64,000 nt of DNA from an uncultured virus (IMG/VR IMGVR_UViG_3300021519_000008) (IMGVR_UViG_3300021519_000008:1-64000), one strand, 5' to 3'; positions 3,880 through 53,735 are shown, counted from the stretch's first letter. The notes: generated by a model from the letters alone, not told the origin. Translations and numbers: made by a program.

Positions 3880-5013
3880 TTAGATTGTTGTTAATTTACT
3901 TTTAGGTTTTGCTTTAATAGTAATAGGTTTTTGTTTGTACAAAGATAAAGGATCAGTATCTATAGTTGCAATAGTACTATGAGTAGAACCATGAGCTAAA
4001 TCAAGACGTACAGGATAAACTACACCATTAGTAAAAATAGGATTACTATCTGCAGCAGCACTAGTACCTTTAATTATAAGACGCTTAGCAGGTTCTGAAC
4101 TACCTATAGCACCAGAGCTATTTGCTATGGTTCTTGAGACATCTCTAAAATCATCTACTTTACTAGGTATCCATTCTGTAATTATGTAATCAGTTACTTG
4201 AAATGTCCAGTCTTCATAGGAAAAAGAACCATTTGATCCTATACTAGATTTAGGAATTACTAATGACCAGCCTAAGTACTTATTCATTAGTCCCATACTA
4301 TTCCATCCTTTAGGAGAAGAATGCCTCCAAAGACCTTTTTCTTTAAACTGTTGTTCTGTTAAGAATTTAATGCTAACAGTTTCTTCTTTAATCTTAGGTT
4401 CAACATAGTGTTCAACTTGAGTGACTTGTAAATACCAACCTCTTCCATAAGGACAATTACCATTACAATCATTTGCTCCTATGTTTTCATCAAAAGAAAC
4501 TCCAACATGACCTTGGTGAAAATGTACAATAGTTCCGTGCTTACCAGCTCTAATACCATCAATTTCAATAGCTGTTATTCTATCTCCTAGCTTAAATCCA
4601 TGTAGATGATACTGCTCAAGTTTTTTTTCAGGTTCACAATAAGGAGCTAAGATCATTTGGTTTTCTTTACTAAAGTTACATGTGTGACCATCATCATCTT
4701 TTACAATCCAATAATCATCACCGCCATCTCTTACAATAGTAGCTTTTTTATCACGCCAGTTTCCAATATTTTGGGTAATAATCACTTTGTCCCCTACTTC
4801 AGGAGTCCAGTGAGGATAGATAGTAGACCAACTTATTTCTATATCTGTTTTAGTAGCTGGTTCATATCCTTGTCCAAAGGAGGAAGTTTGGGGCCAAGTT
4901 TTTCCATCCATAATAATTTCAAAGCGTTCTGAACTTGTTTGGATACCTATACAACCCCTATAAGCATCACTAAAAGGTGTACCAGTTACTCTAATTAGTT
5001 TTAAGTTTGCCAT
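3880..5013 (-). CDS. Hypothetical multi-module protein with SH3/KOW-like repeats
   Basis: Segments VGDKVII and FKLGDRI...GVSFDE. Confidence 0.6.
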   Translation of the reverse strand: MANLKLIRVTGTPFSDAYRGCIGIQTSSERFEIIMDGKTWPQTSSFGQGYEPATKTDIEISWSTIYPHWTPEVGDKVIITQNIGNWRDKKATIVRDGGDDYWIVKDDDGHTCNFSKENQMILAPYCEPEKKLEQYHLHGFKLGDRITAIEIDGIRAGKHGTIVHFHQGHVGVSFDENIGANDCNGNCPYGRGWYLQVTQVEHYVEPKIKEETVSIKFLTEQQFKEKGLWRHSSPKGWNSMGLMNKYLGWSLVIPKSSIGSNGSFSYEDWTFQVTDYIITEWIPSKVDDFRDVSRTIANSSGAIGSSEPAKRLIIKGTSAAADSNPIFTNGVVYPVRLDLAHGSTHSTIATIDTDPLSLYKQKPITIKAKPKSKLTTI

Positions 5014-5046
5014 AGTTTTAGTTTTTAAGTTTATTTTTAAATTTAG

Positions 5047-5118
5047 TATCCCCTGGGTGAATCGAACACACCTTTAACAGGATGAAATCCTGCTGTCCTA
5101 CCAATAGACGAAAGGGAC
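5047..5118 (-). tRNA. tRNA-Glu (TTC)
   Basis: GTCCCTTTCGTCTATTGGTAGGACAGCAGGATTTCATCCTGTTAAAGGTGTGTTCGATTCACCCAGGGGATA folds as a cloverleaf; anticodon loop ATTTCAT; one T-stem mismatch; CCA not encoded. Confidence 0.9.
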
Positions 5119-5125
5119 ATTAAGC

Positions 5126-5302
5126 TTATCTATACTCTAGGAATTCTCCGTGATAGTAACGCTTAGATTTTTTACCACAACCATGTGGTACATTTTTAGA
5201 ACTTGCACAACCCTCTAAACAAATACAAATTGTAATTATTAAAGAGAACCATACAAGGGCTTTGAAGGCAGTACTTTCGCTAAAAGGATTTTCTGGTTTC
5301 AT
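5126..5302 (-). CDS. Small putative lipoprotein/membrane protein (58 aa)
   Basis: Manual ORF MKPENPF...WFSLIITICICLEGCASS with lipobox-like LEGC. Confidence 0.5.
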   Translation of the reverse strand: MKPENPFSESTAFKALVWFSLIITICICLEGCASSKNVPHGCGKKSKRYYHGEFLEYR

Positions 5303-5394
5303 AGTCTTGAAATTACTAAGTAGTTAGCATAAGCATCTTCATAGGTCAAAGCCCAGATTCTGTAGCCGTCAATGACAAATAATTGTTTTTCCAT
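5299..5394 (-). CDS. Small hypothetical protein (31 aa)
   Basis: Manual ORF MEKQLFVIDGYRIWALTYEDAYANYLVISRL; ATGA overlap with the next gene. Confidence 0.55.
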   Translation of the reverse strand: MEKQLFVIDGYRIWALTYEDAYANYLVISRL

Positions 5395-5397
5395 TTG

Positions 5398-5604
5398 TTA
5401 AGTTGTTAAAAGGTTAAGTTCCCATTTAAGGGCATTAAAAGGATTCTCAGAGCCTACTTGATTCATTATCTCTCTTAGCTCTTGAGTATGTTCTCTAAAT
5501 TCTATTTCAGAAATAGCAGAAATCGCTTTGAGTACATCAAGTTGCATAAGTAAACGATAACCATGCTCTAGTTGATTAATCTCTTCTTGAATTAAGTCAT
5601 CCAT
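5398..5604 (-). CDS. Hypothetical protein
   Basis: 68-aa ORF tiled between neighbours. Confidence 0.55.
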   Translation of the reverse strand: MDDLIQEEINQLEHGYRLLMQLDVLKAISAISEIEFREHTQELREIMNQVGSENPFNALKWELNLLTT

Positions 5605-5607
5605 AGC

Positions 5608-5748
5608 TTATAAGAAGTGCCAGCCTTTAAAACCAGCAGAGTTAAGTCTTACCATAATTAATCTTCCTTGCTTATCGTATCCTCTTGCAAGGATCTTACC
5701 TGAAGGAATTCTAGGCTTAAGAACGCTTAGTGTCTGTTGATTAATCAT
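5608..5748 (-). CDS. Small hypothetical protein (46 aa)
   Basis: Manual ORF MINQQTLSVLKPRIPSGKILARGYD...GWHFL fills the gap exactly. Confidence 0.5.
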   Translation of the reverse strand: MINQQTLSVLKPRIPSGKILARGYDKQGRLIMVRLNSAGFKGWHFL

Positions 5749-5944
5749 TACCTTCTTCTTTAAGAGACTTAAGATAAAAGTGTCCTACTACTGTAAGTAA
5801 ACATAAAGTTAAAACTTCTGTAGTAAACACATAAGTAAAGGCTTGTGTTCCCATGCTACTAATAACATCAGGAAGAGCCATGATAAATACCATACCTGCA
5901 CATACAGCGATGACAAGTAAGAAAGTGGACGGTTTGATTTTCAT
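5741..5944 (-). CDS. Small two-TM membrane protein
   Basis: Two hydrophobic segments; AAACT-repeat leader. Confidence 0.6.
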   Translation of the reverse strand: MKIKPSTFLLVIAVCAGMVFIMALPDVISSMGTQAFTYVFTTEVLTLCLLTVVGHFYLKSLKEEGND

Positions 5945-6076
5945 ATTTTTTAGTTTTTAGTTTGTTTAGTTTGTTTAGTTAGTTTAGTTTATACTAGTTG
6001 GTATTATACCCTTAGGTATAAAAAAACTACAAGGTCCTCTAGACGTGTTAGTAGGATAAACCATACCTTGTAGTAG

Positions 6077-6212
6077 TAGTACATTTGGGACTCAAACCCA
6101 AGATAGTATCCATCAGCTCAACGATAAGCAGATACTCCCCAACATTGCAATATGTGCATTACTCTTTTTTAAATTCGTTGATTGGGAACGTGTGTCACCT
6201 CGCCTATGTACT
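6077..6212 (-). ncRNA. Enlarged tRNA-like RNA 2 (about 136 nt)
   Basis: Acceptor AGTACAT/ATGTACT; D-like arm GCG...CGT; T-arm TTGGG-TTTGAGT-CCCAA; enlarged stems CCCAA/TTGGG and AGTATC/GATACT. Confidence 0.6.
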
Positions 6213-6286
6213 ATTTAAAAAAGGCCTTTCACCTATTAGTAGCCAATAGCTGACTATACTGCATTGCTTCATCAGCACTTATGCTA

Positions 6287-6418
6287 TGCTTTACTTCCAT
6301 CTGCACTCAGTTGTAACGTGCTATCCACATTTAAGTGGCCAATACACTAGCTGGATATCCCGCTTCCTTTACAACTGCTCACCCTTTGGAAGTGAGTTAT
6401 GGTGCATTAAAGAAAGCA
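6287..6418 (-). ncRNA. Twister-type self-cleaving ribozyme (P1 type), copy A
   Basis: P1 CTT/AAG, UAA, P2 TGC/GCA, GA, pseudoknots CCA/TGG and CC/GG, P4 CTCAC/GTGAG, P5 CAGTTGTAA/TTACAACTG. Confidence 0.75.
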
Positions 6419-6602
6419 GTTTAAACACTTGCCTAGGTGTAGGATTTCATCCCATAGAGAGTTGTTTTACATTACGTATCATGGCTCACAAGCGATACAA
6501 CCTTTCCAGGAATTTAAATTTTGGGTTTTATATAAGAGTTCTGTAACGTAGAGACTCATAACTTACCGAATAGTTTTTATTAAGGTTTACTAATAACCTA
6601 TA

Positions 6603-6727
6603 GTACTTCACTCTGCATTCAGTTGTAATATCTAAAGGACACATATTTCAGCGTTAGATATTAAGAGCCCATCCTTGCTCATTACAACTGCTATCCCTTG
6701 TGAAGATAGAATGATGCATTAAAGCAA
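6603..6727 (-). ncRNA. Twister-type self-cleaving ribozyme (P1 type), copy B
   Basis: Same core with compensatory changes: pseudoknot CAC/GTG, P4 CTATC/GATAG, TC/GG. Confidence 0.75.
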
Positions 6728-7185
6728 CGAACTGAGAAGTTCGCTTAGAATCAGTTAAGGAATCATCAGGCTAATGATGATTACTACATAAGAGAAGAGA
6801 GAAGACATAAGAATAAGGGAAGGAAGGGAAAGGGTAATCCTTTAATCTCTTTTAATCTTTTTTAATCTCTTTTAAGGTTATTTAACGTAAAGTCAACAAT
6901 TTATATATAACGTAGCATTAAAACCCCACAATTACCCACTTTTAGGTGTTAAATAGAAGATTGAAGGGAGTGGTTCCCCACTATTTACCACTACATATAC
7001 CCCCCAATTGTCAGGAAAAAGTTAAACATTATGACAATTGTCTCGCAAAACACGGGGTTATGACTTACAAAAGTTAAACAAAACGTAAATTAGGTAGTTT
7101 GATGACATTAGACTGACAATATACCCGCAATATAAGAGAGAGATAAGAGAGTGATAAGAGAATTTAATTTCTCTTCTTCCCACTG

Positions 7186-7217
7186 CTGTCTGATTACTGT
7201 CTGATTACTGTCTGATT
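7186..7217. repeat. Tandem 11-bp repeat (CTGTCTGATTA, about 3 copies)
   Basis: Directly visible in non-coding DNA. Confidence 0.85.
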
Positions 7218-7245
7218 TAGGGGGTATTTCTACCCCCCTTTCAGA

Positions 7246-7785
7246 TTAATCTTGCTCTACTGCTACGCTTTCTACCACATTCTCTGTGATAGCACTGAGG
7301 TCAGTCTTCCTTACAAGGATGTCAAGCATCTCTGCATCGTAAGCACGAAGGAATGACTTACGGTAAATTGCTTTTCCGTTCTCGTCTGTTACCTTAGCAC
7401 CTGAGCGGTCTTTCTTGTAGTTACTTTCGTAGACCACAGGTTGACCTTTGTCATTACCTACAACACCTAAGGTCACTGCCTCTGCAAGTGATGTTGTTTC
7501 GATTACTTGGATACCATAGTTGTTGTTTACCAACTGTGATAGATTTACATCTAACTGAACAGGGGAGTCTTTGTCACCTGTAATAGTAGAAGCGTCCATT
7601 CCAAAAATCTTTGCGAACTTTTCTTCGCTAAAATTCTGAATGCAAGTCTTTGTCCATTCGCTACCTTTACCTGTAAAGACAGCCATAGGGTTGTTGTTGC
7701 GAATACCGCAAAGAACTGAGAGAGAGTTTGCTTTGTTGCGCCAAACGCTTAAAGCAATGATTGGAGAAATAGATGGGTTAAACAT
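7246..7785 (-). CDS. Hypothetical protein with acidic C-terminus
   Basis: 179-aa ORF followed by hairpin AGGGGGTA/TACCCCCT. Confidence 0.7.
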   Translation of the reverse strand: MFNPSISPIIALSVWRNKANSLSVLCGIRNNNPMAVFTGKGSEWTKTCIQNFSEEKFAKIFGMDASTITGDKDSPVQLDVNLSQLVNNNYGIQVIETTSLAEAVTLGVVGNDKGQPVVYESNYKKDRSGAKVTDENGKAIYRKSFLRAYDAEMLDILVRKTDLSAITENVVESVAVEQD

Positions 7786-7860
7786 AGTAAAGTAGATAGG
7801 AGGAAATCACAACCAAGCAAGGAAGGAGGAGACCACGTTAAATAAGGAAAAGAAGAAGCA

Positions 7861-8001
7861 TTACGCTTCTACCCAAATAATACCTTCGCAGGTCTTTATC
7901 CTTAACTTTTTTACAATTCCGTTAAATGATATGCGACCTAAGATTTGTCCGTAAGGTAGGCTTCTGCCTACGATAGGTAATGGTTTAAGTATATTGTACA
8001 T
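7861..8001 (-). CDS. Small hypothetical protein (46 aa)
   Basis: Manual ORF MYNILKPLPIVGRSLPYGQ...IIWVEA; ATG 5 nt after the CTCTTCTCT motif. Confidence 0.55.
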   Translation of the reverse strand: MYNILKPLPIVGRSLPYGQILGRISFNGIVKKLRIKTCEGIIWVEA

Positions 8002-8037
8002 AGATTAGAGAAGAGAAAAAGGGGCTTTAGCCCCTAA

Positions 8038-8337
8038 TTACAGATTATGCCGATGCATATTCTTATAAAAATCTATAAGCCACCATGGTATTTCATAATA
8101 CTCAGGTTCTTGTTCAAAGTAGTAGTGGTTTTTATACCTTTTCATAACGCTTACCCAATAGTTATCTGACCAAAGGAAATAAATGTGGTACCCTCCTACT
8201 AAGAGTTGAGCAGTAGTGCTATTCTTTCTTCTTAGTTTTACAGTATTAGTAGGGGCTTGTAGTCCAAGTCTTTCTATTACTTCCGTTACTCTAACTTTTA
8301 AGTTAGCAGTTCTTTCTTGTATAGTTTGTATATCCAT
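8038..8337 (-). CDS. Hypothetical protein (start revised to 8337)
   Basis: In-frame ATG 5 nt after CTCTTCTCC; removes overlap with the upstream gene. Confidence 0.6.
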   Translation of the reverse strand: MDIQTIQERTANLKVRVTEVIERLGLQAPTNTVKLRRKNSTTAQLLVGGYHIYFLWSDNYWVSVMKRYKNHYYFEQEPEYYEIPWWLIDFYKNMHRHNL

Positions 8338-8362
8338 ACTACGGAGAAGAGAAAAAAGATGC

Positions 8363-8686
8363 CTATTGGGCATCTCTTTCTGTTCCATAGTCTATGTATC
8401 TACCATCAGGGTAGATCTCATAGTAATGCTCTACCTCTCCCTTAGAGATAAGATAGATTTGGTCACAAGTCTTAGTACGTACAGTAAGTAACAACTTACT
8501 ATCAAGGTTAATCACACAATTCTTGATGTGATTAACACTCGCCAGTATGTTCTTACATACAGTACTATCGTCAGAGGAGATAGCACCAAAGGATTTAACT
8601 ACGTTAATCTTTGGCTTAGTTGTTCTGCTTACTTGACCAGAAAGGGAAGCACACAACAGGAAGGATAGGAAGATGAAGTATTTCAT
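8363..8686 (-). CDS. Hypothetical exported protein (start revised to 8686)
   Basis: The revised start gives a clean signal peptide MKYFIFLSFLLCASLSG-Q. Confidence 0.65.
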   Translation of the reverse strand: MKYFIFLSFLLCASLSGQVSRTTKPKINVVKSFGAISSDDSTVCKNILASVNHIKNCVINLDSKLLLTVRTKTCDQIYLISKGEVEHYYEIYPDGRYIDYGTERDAQ

Positions 8687-8717
8687 AGAATAGAGAAGAG
8701 AAAAAGATAGCCAAAGG

Positions 8718-8936
8718 CTACCTCTTCTTGTCTGTCTCATTGATTATGCTTGCTATCACAAAGGCTGGCATCCATCCTAAGGCAAAGCAATACTTCACTA
8801 CCTCAGTAAACTCCTGACCATACTCCTTCACCATTCCTATTTGGAAGTACACAGTCATAAACCATCCTGCTACAATGAAGGCAATCATACTAACTACCGC
8901 AATGGTAATCAATACACTCTTAGTTATCCTATTCAT
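8718..8936 (-). CDS. Small two-TM membrane protein (start revised to 8936)
   Basis: MNRITKSVLITIAVVSMIAFIVAGWF...; ATG 5 nt after the motif. Confidence 0.6.
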   Translation of the reverse strand: MNRITKSVLITIAVVSMIAFIVAGWFMTVYFQIGMVKEYGQEFTEVVKYCFALGWMPAFVIASIINETDKKR

Positions 8937-8962
8937 ACAATAGAGAAGAGAATAACAAGACA

Positions 8963-9148
8963 TCATTGCCTTGTCATTCTTTCTTTGCAGTAGTAGTAAC
9001 AATCCATGGCATCGCTGGTTGTTTCATCCCACTCCACTCTTGTTTCCAACATCTTGTTCTTGTCACAGAACATTGAGTAGGTCATGTCTTCTGTGTAGAC
9101 TATCAACATACCATTGTAGTTTACTTCTATTGTCCTTGTATCCATCAT
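8963..9148 (-). CDS. Small hypothetical protein
   Basis: First gene of the leftward arm; the second ATG (9145) is 5 nt after the motif. Confidence 0.55.
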   Translation of the reverse strand: MMDTRTIEVNYNGMLIVYTEDMTYSMFCDKNKMLETRVEWDETTSDAMDCYYYCKERMTRQ

Positions 9149-52563: not shown

Positions 52564-53735
52564 TGGTTGTCCCAGGGGTTAACGGTTCTATAATTGCAAA
52601 TTCTAATGCACCTACAGGTTCAAGACTTAAGGGTGCATATAAGAATTCTAAGAAACGTAAGATGGATGATGGGGGATGGGCTAACTGGACTCCCAATACA
52701 GGAAAACCTTACTTAAGAACTAGTCCTGCAGGTAATACAGGTTACTCAGACAATACTAAAGTAAGTAGCCCTGACCTAAACAATAGAAAAGCAGCAGAAG
52801 CTGCTCAGTATGCAAGAAAGGTAGGAAGTATCACTCAAGGTACAGTTAAATCAAATTATGAGAAAGCAAAAGAAGCTAGTTCTTTTGTATCTCAAGCAGA
52901 ACAACGTAAAGGTTCTGCTGATCCATTAGATCATGTATTAGATATGGTTAATCCCGCTTCACTTGCATTTGCAGCAACTGATTTAGTAGGTAATACAGGA
53001 TCTGCTGTATCTAATGCTGCACAAGGTAATTTTAAAGAAGCTGGAAGCAATTTGTTAAATGCTGGGATTAATGCACTCCAAGTTATACCAGCTGCTTCAG
53101 AATTACGTGGACCATTAAAATCCGCTAGTAAATATCTTACTACTAATACAGCATTAAAAAATACATACAAATACAATCCTTTAGCATTTAAACCTAATCC
53201 TGAATCTTATTATAGAGTGATGCCAGATGCAGGTGCTGAAGATTTAATTAATTCTGGATTTGTAAGACCTGCAGAAGGTTCTCCTACATCTTATTTTAAT
53301 AAAGGAGTACCTCTTGATATAAGAAGAGCAAAAACTTTTGGAACTAATACTCGTGAAGCTTATCATGGTTATAAGGGACCATATATGGTAGAATCAAATA
53401 ATCCAAAAGCATTTGATCCCTGGCTTCAGTTTCCTGAACCTAGTTTAAAATTTTATCAAACAAAAGCTCCTATTCCCTCTAGTGATATTAAATTATACAA
53501 AGAAGATTGGTTACAAGGATATAAACAAATTAAAAAACCAGGATTAAAAAAAGGAGGAGAGATAGATAATGATGATGATAAAGACATGGTTAACGGAGTA
53601 GCAAGTATTCTACGTAGGGTAAAAGACCCTAAGAATAGATTGCAATTAGCTAATCAGTTATCAAAACAATTTAATAGAGAAAAGGTAAAGTATGACTTAG
53701 CTTCTTTTTTAAATAAATCAAAAGTAAAAAAATGA
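52563..53735 (+). CDS. Putative internal cargo protein with variable insert
   Basis: MDDGG and LKKGG motifs flank a central domain. Confidence 0.6.
   Translation: MVVPGVNGSIIANSNAPTGSRLKGAYKNSKKRKMDDGGWANWTPNTGKPYLRTSPAGNTGYSDNTKVSSPDLNNRKAAEAAQYARKVGSITQGTVKSNYEKAKEASSFVSQAEQRKGSADPLDHVLDMVNPASLAFAATDLVGNTGSAVSNAAQGNFKEAGSNLLNAGINALQVIPAASELRGPLKSASKYLTTNTALKNTYKYNPLAFKPNPESYYRVMPDAGAEDLINSGFVRPAEGSPTSYFNKGVPLDIRRAKTFGTNTREAYHGYKGPYMVESNNPKAFDPWLQFPEPSLKFYQTKAPIPSSDIKLYKEDWLQGYKQIKKPGLKKGGEIDNDDDKDMVNGVASILRRVKDPKNRLQLANQLSKQFNREKVKYDLASFLNKSKVKK

Follow-up and report, generated by a model that had tools for sequence, protein, structure and literature searches.

The DNA discussed here comes from an uncultured freshwater crAss-like phage. 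Its record is a 74-kb IMG/VR virus contig, estimated to be 63% complete, and the window is the whole stretch of 64,000 nucleotides of that contig that was analyzed. Portal, major head, and terminase families are recognizable in the record; identity of the large terminase to its counterparts in a Leptolyngbya phage, Cellulophaga phages, Flavobacterium phages, and crAss-like gut phages does not exceed 39%. Within a leftward block of small open reading frames (ORFs), the window contains a gene-free gap of 1.3 kb (5945-7245). Inside this gap, on the minus strand, lie two copies of an element laid out like a twister ribozyme. An earlier note, made from the sequence alone, had placed them there, and both are indeed found (Table 1).

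Read along the minus strand, the region upstream of the two copies holds the end of a 179-aa ORF and a G-rich hairpin, followed by CAGACAGUAAU in three copies and by other repeats. The three direct repeats occupy 7150-7215, after the G-rich hairpin; further on come two copies each of GUUUAACUUUU and GACAAUUG, and the stretch looks like a control region. Some 120 nt upstream of copy A, at 6840-6890, are AAAGAGAUUAAA-like repeats followed by a pyrimidine-rich tract, CCCUUUCCCUUCCUUCCCUUAUUCUU. A hairpin then leads directly into copy A. Between the copies is a spacer whose 3' half is 79% identical to a spacer in the related genome G002.

Directly 3' of copy B comes a conserved module of about 75 nt, followed by some 150 nt with two hairpins and then by a terminator-like hairpin. 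The latter, judged from its fold, is likely to be the end of an RNA headed by copy B; a consensus terminator scan missed it because that scan allows only loops of 3-8. Just before the first gene of the block, at 6005-6020, stands a small conserved hairpin, UAUACC-NNNN-GGUAUA, followed by AUACCAA..UAGUAUAAACUAAAC. The same small hairpin recurs in L007, G001, G002, and G005 after their predicted ribozymes, between the ribozyme and the next module. Past it, in the window, come a 67-aa ORF, two more small ORFs, and a tRNA-Glu.

The earlier note had described the pair as lying upstream of tRNA-like RNAs. This part of its description is not supported. ARAGORN and the Rfam tRNA model give only the tRNA-Glu, 1.17 kb downstream, beyond the terminator-like hairpin and the three small ORFs. 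Neither calls a tRNA-like RNA between the predicted ribozymes and the tRNA-Glu, and neither finds one in 5945-6605 (with the Rfam model read to E≤10). Visual inspection alone suggested a T-arm-like hairpin near 6080-6100. The spacer and the module behind copy B were also considered as possible structured RNAs, an idea that was set aside; these stretches are conserved, but the fold z-scores are only +0.41, +0.17, and -1.15.

Table 1. Features of the locus, with positions counted from the first nucleotide of the window.
Feature	Position	Strand	Basis or remark
Predicted ribozyme copy A, whole element, P1 to P1'	6604..6726	minus	sequence, R1 covariance model, MFE fold
Copy A, P1	6726-6722/6608-6604	minus	
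Copy A, P2 (UGCAU/AUGCA)	6718-6714/6618-6614	minus	
Copy A, predicted cleavage site U6721 (-1) / A6720 (+1, putative general acid)	6720..6721	minus	predicted from the equivalent position, the UAA of the Rfam twister-P1 consensus
Copy A, loop L4 UUCACAAGG	6696..6704	minus	CAC 6702-6700 pairs with GUG 6611-6609 (pseudoknot T1)
Copy A, G6613 (putative general base), A6612, T1 3' strand GUG 6611-6609	6609..6613	minus	matches GAGGG of the Rfam consensus
Copy A, P5 arm with conserved base CAGUUGUAAU/AUUACAACUG and variable tip	6620..6690	minus	alignment; 10 P5 pairs counted
Predicted ribozyme copy B, whole element	6288..6417	minus	sequence, R1 covariance model, MFE fold
Copy B, P1	6417-6410/6296-6288	minus	
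Copy B, predicted cleavage site U6409 / A6408	6408..6409	minus	predicted as for copy A
Copy B, loop L4 UUCCAAAGG	6383..6391	minus	CCA 6389-6387 pairs with UGG 6299-6297
Copy B, G6301, A6300, T1 3' strand UGG 6299-6297	6297..6301	minus	
Hairpin directly 5' of copy A, 3' end touching the P1 5' strand	6726..6745	minus	-8.2 kcal/mol
Spacer between the copies	6410..6603	minus	fold z +0.41, no better than shuffles
Conserved module of about 75 nt directly 3' of copy B, ending in GGCC and a U run	6213..6287	minus	72-78% identity in four related records; fold no better than shuffles (z +0.17)
Terminator-like hairpin CUACAAGG...CCUUGUAG + U7	6019..6074	minus	fold; same module in the relative G002
tRNA-Glu(UUC), the sole tRNA in the window	5046..5118	minus	ARAGORN; Rfam tRNA 43.5 bits

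Layout of the two copies

The two copies have a common layout. From the start to L4, this is the 5' strand of P1, a U, AA, UGCAY, CA with 2-3 further nucleotides, and a 5-bp P4 that closes the loop UU-NNN-AA-GG. After P4 come a long P5 arm (CAGUUGUAA...UUACAACUG), an A, RUGCA, GA, NNN, and the 3' strand of P1. Compared pairwise, the copies have their core in common, while the P5 tip and the flanks have diverged. Minimum free energy folds of both recover P1, P2, P4, and P5 unaided, with fold-energy z-scores that are modest (-1.57 for copy A, -2.66 for copy B).

A covariance model built from relatives together with both window copies, here called R1, scores copy A at 85.9 bits (E 1e-22) and copy B at 95.2 bits (E 1.9e-25), and finds no third copy in the 74-kb record. 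Its partial match at 52594-52652 on the plus strand (15.4 bits, E 0.054) consists of a UAAUGCACC...GUGCA hairpin only, lacks P4 and L4, and is probably due to chance. With 22 specified bases, a pattern for the 5' half of the element has two exact matches in the window; 100 dinucleotide shuffles gave none.

The copies also covary with each other, as the earlier note had observed. P4 is CUAUC/GAUAG in copy A and CUCAC/GUGAG in copy B. The pseudoknot T1 is CAC/GUG in the one and CCA/UGG in the other, complementary in both. In P2, copy B has UGCAC/GUGCA. The cut sites that had been proposed, 6721/6720 and 6409/6408, are correctly placed: at the sequence level, both copies have UAA where a twister has its cleavage site, N/A and then a second A, in the 5' strand of L1. 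Cleavage at those positions is a prediction.

The family and its covariation

Exact matches to the 5'-half pattern are found at no fewer than 119 loci in viral contigs and in seven MAG contigs, four of the seven labeled Chitinophagaceae, Chitinophagales, Sediminibacterium, or Bacteroidia. The host of the window's phage probably belongs to the Chitinophagales. Although the search pattern left out the 3' half, CUGARUGCAGA and NNN, this half follows in 123 of 126 instances among the matches listed. One of the three exceptions is at the end of its locus; the other two are diverged copies, scored by R1 at 68 and 51 bits. Among the same listed matches, T1 is complementary in 120 of 123 instances (CCC/GGG 82, CCA/UGG 21, CAC/GUG 16, UCC/GGA 1), and the G and A that a twister carries directly 5' of the T1 3' strand precede the triplet in 119 of 123. 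Every listed member has a P5, with lengths from 14 to 312 nt. Such instance counts take in near-duplicates; the distinct instances with full flanks number 110.

Many core positions are, of course, fixed by the search patterns, so that conservation in any single scan is partly there by construction. For this reason, two further scans each freed one half of the element. With L4-P4'-P5 as the only anchor, the first scan found 106 distinct instances, and UAAUGCAYCA stands upstream in 90 of them. Among the 16 variants, five have UGUAC together with GUACA, a compensating change in P2, and a sixth has UGUAC opposite an unchanged GUGCA, which leaves a U-G pair. In two, the sole change to the 5' half is a C for U at -1. 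Five carry two extra bases after AA; others keep AA. The four that lack the CA of L2 are hard to fit with any T2; C stands at -1 in two of them as well, and one of the four has the two extra bases besides.

The second scan was anchored on the 5' half and the P5 base, leaving L4 free in both sequence and length. Of the 105 instances it gave, 103 have UUNNNAAGG, which confirms for the family the extra U in L4 that the earlier note had seen in both copies. Since the freed scans give 90/106 and 103/105, the core of the family is conserved beyond what the search patterns imposed.

Covariation was scored in an alignment, A2, of 55 distinct members (of the 110) whose P5 is at most 80 nt, both window copies included. 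The structure scored comprised P1, P2, P4, P5, T1, and one T2 pair, which makes 30 pairs and 1643 cells. The sequences come from related phages, and the cell counts are not independent events; in that measure, standard pairs fill 91.9% of the cells, a share that drops to 26.4-51.3% once the 3' partners are displaced by 1-3 columns. Changes on both sides occur at 20 of the 30 pairs (P1 6/6, P4 3/5, P2 1/5, T1 3/3, P5 7/10), and none of 500 column shuffles reaches any of five measures. Because the pattern fixes the outer four pairs of P2, both end pairs of P4, and the letters of L4, none of these is informative here. T1 is paired in 99.4% of its cells. G-U pairs are common (20 rows have U-G at the P1 position next to the cut), in keeping with an RNA made in the minus-strand sense of the window.

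The alignment thus supports, with covariation, the nested helices of a twister, P1, P2, and P4 with internal loops L1 and L2 and terminal loop L4. It also holds the three Watson-Crick pairs of T1 between L4 and the 3' strand of L1.

The second tertiary contact, T2, is less simple. The earlier note had read it as YC in L2 meeting GG in L4. Pairing of this kind is possible in all 55 rows of A2 (C-G 45, U-G 10). The changes are one-sided only, however, and not informative. Further, the Y covaries with the purine 5' of the P2 3' strand in strict Watson-Crick fashion: C:G 100 times and U:A 23 times, without exception in 123 instances among the matches listed. This, in turn, means that P2 may have 5 bp and T2 may be smaller. 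Either P2 has 5 bp with a reduced T2, or the purine is in a triple or an alternative state.

Surroundings of the family and database searches

The elements are intergenic; among 76, only two fall within an ORF of at least 50 aa. For 37 of the 76, an ORF on the same strand starts with ATG within 120 nt downstream, often at 30-50 nt, and same-strand ORFs are nearer than opposite-strand ones. The downstream ORFs are mostly small. Of 41, eight match any PHROG, and no PHROG family recurs beyond two matches among them, which gives no specific downstream gene. Upstream, a hairpin of -7 kcal/mol or better is found in 47 of 104 flanks, against 11 of 104 controls (Wilcoxon p 3e-4), and the enriched hairpin ends 1-7 nt before the cut site. 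What these data show is the family, its fold with the conservation and covariation of that fold, and its intergenic, gene-co-oriented placement.

More than one copy on the same strand within 3 kb is found at 17 of 80 loci, and further copies within a locus are always on the same strand. Close relatives of the window's phage have such tandem copies as well (G001 two, G002 three). Five near-complete genomes hold only one or two copies each, which points to a device of one locus rather than one placed between every gene. Spacers and flanking modules have been shuffled among relatives.

Several individual loci deserve mention. In L253 (G002), positions 1234-2279 hold three predicted ribozymes, and in L250 (G001), positions 1006-1671 hold two, 237-389 nt apart. 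All four aligned spacers, that of the window included, have the same end of about 35 nt (ACCUAAGCAUGUGUUUAAACUGCUUACUU) before the cut site. At L230:200-481, a member has in P4 an 87-nt insertion holding a piece like a tRNA T-arm, GAGGGUUCGAAUCCUC, and a tRNA-Trp starts 4-5 nt after its T1 strand; this is the only tRNA seen directly behind a member of the family. In L037:580-2124 (also L004, L103, and L116), P1 is of the GGU/GCC type. About 138 nt past the predicted L037 ribozyme, with a hairpin-like GGUGUGAAGAAUACUUCAGCACA between, comes a 429-aa protein of PHROG 850 ("RNA-binding protein", E 1e-120). Here, a ribozyme-headed small RNA possibly lies beside its binding protein.

The window, parts of it, and two short natural members were searched with all 4227 Rfam families, both at the gathering threshold and at E≤10. 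At gathering, none of the families recognizes either copy, and no twister model (P1, P3, P5, or sister) matches the window. At E≤10, none matches the 3 kb or the 471 nt that hold the copies, the 64-nt (131-nt) natural minimal member with a 14-nt P5, or another short member. The twister-P1 model, RF03160, was the check that the earlier note had suggested. It recognizes neither copy at E≤10 and has no match in the whole 74-kb record; its curated threshold of 67.2 bits is not reached by any family member examined. With every twister model silent at E≤10, the suspicion that the copies are a variant is confirmed.

On five other records that hold members, RF03160 gives a single match of 11.9 bits, and this lies away from the member. 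It falls at L377:1501-1553 (G007), spans 53 nt without P3, and has UAG at the cut site and the loop UUCAAAGCC. It may be a decayed canonical twister or chance; the G007 phage genome holds one family member elsewhere.

Beyond Rfam, GenBank phages give no match to a typical member at E≤0.01 and none to window 5000-9000. A description of this variant was not found in the literature, where the motif set of PMC10690425 (structured RNAs of viruses and phages) could include the family unnamed. Three riverine metatranscriptomes hold 6-8% of the words; on 4000-9000 the contigs are mostly from relatives. Two high-depth metatranscriptome contigs have only core pieces of about 20 nt in common with the locus, and these contigs, which could derive from DNA, carry no information on ends, strand, or level and thus speak neither for nor against cleavage or expression.

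Predicted cleavage, rival readings, and known systems

The family is read here as a new variant of the twister class in a phage-specific form, a reading drawn from its sequences. Each of the two copies is probably a self-cleaving RNA of this type, cutting itself at U6721/A6720 and at U6409/A6408. Upon transcription of the minus strand, each element would fold P1, P2, P4, and its long P5. L4 would then dock on the internal loop through the three pairs of T1 and a small second contact. Docking would place G6613 (in copy B, G6301) as the general base and A6720 (A6408) as the general acid. In the twister, the general acid is the A after the cut, and the general base is a G of the 3' strand (sections of PMC11662667 and PMC5408937).

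With cuts at both sites, three products would be expected. The upstream RNA would end in its hairpin with a 2',3'-cyclic phosphate. An excised RNA of 312 nt, from 6720 to 6409, would comprise copy A and the spacer. An RNA of about 390 nt, headed by copy B and having a 5'-OH, would probably end at the terminator-like hairpin near 6019. A hairpin at the cyclic-phosphate 3' end and a compact structure at the 5'-OH could plausibly protect these RNAs from exonucleases. The pair would then serve, in the leader that precedes the leftward block of small genes, to uncouple RNAs and protect their ends.

A quite different view is that the family is a conserved structured RNA with a twister-like fold that does not cleave, perhaps a protein- or ligand-binding leader element resembling the RAGATH motifs. 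There is some precedent, as RAGATH structures in locations typical of ribozymes failed to cleave (a passage of PMC6765202). The Rfam twister models also fail to recognize the family, T2 and L4 depart from the twister consensus, and a stem that served only as a spacer would not need a base as conserved as the CAGUUGUAA/UUACAACUG of P5. What makes this view unlikely is which residues are near-invariant. These are the active site and the docking residues of the twister, UAA, GA (119 of 123 among the matches listed), UNNNAAG, and a covarying T1, which an RNA without catalytic function would not obviously need.

Such likeness might also be convergence: a separate class of self-cleaving RNA could have arrived at a double-pseudoknot scaffold of this kind while its active site differs in part. 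Even minimal members have no detectable similarity to an Rfam model, P2 is not a free helix but a conserved UGCAY, P4 is closed by C-G where the twister's G-C is called "essentially invariant" (in text from PMC5408937), and the strict Y:R covariation suggests a different arrangement around T2. Against this, seven consecutive bases of L4, UCCCAAG, match the twister consensus together with UAA and GAGGG, in the same order and the same places. This exceeds what convergence would be expected to deliver, and makes a separate origin a decidedly poor prospect. Still less credible, to the point of being nearly dismissible, is a repeat acting at the level of DNA or as a transcription signal (a promoter or terminator cassette, or a recombination site) in which the RNA fold is incidental. 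The 1.3-kb gene-free control region does contain direct repeats and hairpins, the surrounding modules are shuffled between relatives, and the conserved 41-nt core could serve recombination. A DNA signal would not, however, account for compensatory changes at 20 of 30 pairs, the long-range pseudoknot among them, nor for frequent G-U pairs, which are A-C mismatches on the other strand. Further copies at a locus are, moreover, all on the same strand, and same-strand ORFs are nearer.

If the preferred reading, a cleaving twister variant, is right, the sequence space of the twister is wider than thought in its most conserved tertiary contact. This would explain why catalog models miss a family that occurs at 119 or more viral-contig loci, and the family would let one see, in a natural setting, how far the twister active site depends on T2 and L4. 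In freshwater crAss-like phages, ribozymes set right after hairpins would then process the leader of an early-type block of genes, a simple means of uncoupling neighboring RNAs and protecting their ends. A curated model would let metagenome annotators label the elements, and mark the orientation and boundaries of phage transcription units. From the window itself, what is new is the clean tandem pair, the Y:R covariation, and the finding, with ARAGORN and the Rfam tRNA model, of no tRNA-like RNA after the predicted ribozymes (5945-6605).

A bolder version goes further, and is offered as a speculation that we rather doubt. Here, the family would be a P5-obligate subclass of twister, a hallmark of environmental Bacteroidota crAss-like phages, in which one pair of T2 has been handed to P2; arrays of two or three at one locus would excise functional leader RNAs. 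The transfer of a T2 pair to P2 would account for both the strict Y:R covariation and the extra U of L4. An array would then make small RNAs, in this window one of 312 nt with a 5'-OH and a 2',3'-cyclic phosphate, and so do more than trim a message. Ends of these kinds are what an RtcB-type ligase needs.

Whichever version is taken, the closest known system is twister-P1 (RF03160; Roth et al., 2014, as reviewed in PMC5408937 and PMC6154101). The order of elements is the same in both: P1, U/AA, P2, L2, P4, L4, P4', P5, P2', GA, the T1 strand, and P1'. The Rfam consensus line runs P1, UAA, a 4-bp P2, GC, P3, P4 closing GUCCCAAGCC, UAAA, P2', GAGGG, P1'. That of R1 runs P1, UAA, UGCAC, CAUAA, CUCAC-UUCCCAAGG-GUGAG, P5, A, GUGCA, GAGGG, P1'. 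UAA, UCCCAAG, and GAGGG are thus identical, in the same structural places. This agreement, together with U/AA and the GA before the T1 strand, bears out the type-P1 layout assigned in the earlier note. Both have a T1 of three pairs between L4 and the 3' strand of L1, and both are intergenic in phage-related DNA (for the twister, parts of PMC6765202 and PMC10085705).

There are also differences. The family lacks P3 and always has P5, whereas P3 is present in 78% and P5 in about 1% of annotated twisters (a section of PMC6154101). Compared with the twister consensus G-UCCCAAGC-C, its L4 keeps UCCCAAG but has one U inserted, and the closing pair of P4 is C-G, not G-C. P2 is a conserved UGCAY. The T2 of the twister joins the conserved GC of L2 to two bulged bases of L4, and its T1 has three pairs and an A-A pair (parts of PMC5408937). 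In the family, the GC:GC contact is replaced by (Y)C:GG, with GG rather than GC at the T2-forming positions of L4 and with a Y that also covaries with the purine across P2. The 5' strand of T2 has been written "NC", which YC fits, and the two-pair pseudoknot of canonical twisters tolerates wobbles; insertions in L4 tend to lower their cleavage, and imperfections in T2 do so (all from portions of PMC11662667).

Other classes are further away. Twister-sister is without the pseudoknot and cleaves the opposite strand of the internal loop (text from PMC5408937), whereas the family has a covarying pseudoknot; with no match to the Rfam twister-sister model at E≤10, this identity was rejected. So was that of an HDV-like or theta ribozyme, as the helices are of the twister type, and no HDV family matches 4500-7500 at E≤10.

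Theta ribozymes, which are HDV-like, stand next to tRNAs in gut phages (an excerpt of PMC10879173). Like theta, the family consists of small, phage-specific, and (here by prediction) self-cleaving RNAs, and it is found in non-coding RNA regions of phages with Bacteroidota-type hosts. Unlike theta, which has the nested double pseudoknot of HDV, it has a twister-type fold, and no tRNA adjoins it in the window. Clustered hammerhead and twister ribozymes in intergenic regions of bacteria and prophages have been proposed to process polycistronic transcripts (passages of PMC6765202 and PMC10085705). Here, too, several predicted units lie close together on one strand between genes, presumably for the processing of a transcript. 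In contrast to those clusters, both units belong to a single uncatalogued variant, and a genome carries one to three copies at one locus rather than copies at many sites.
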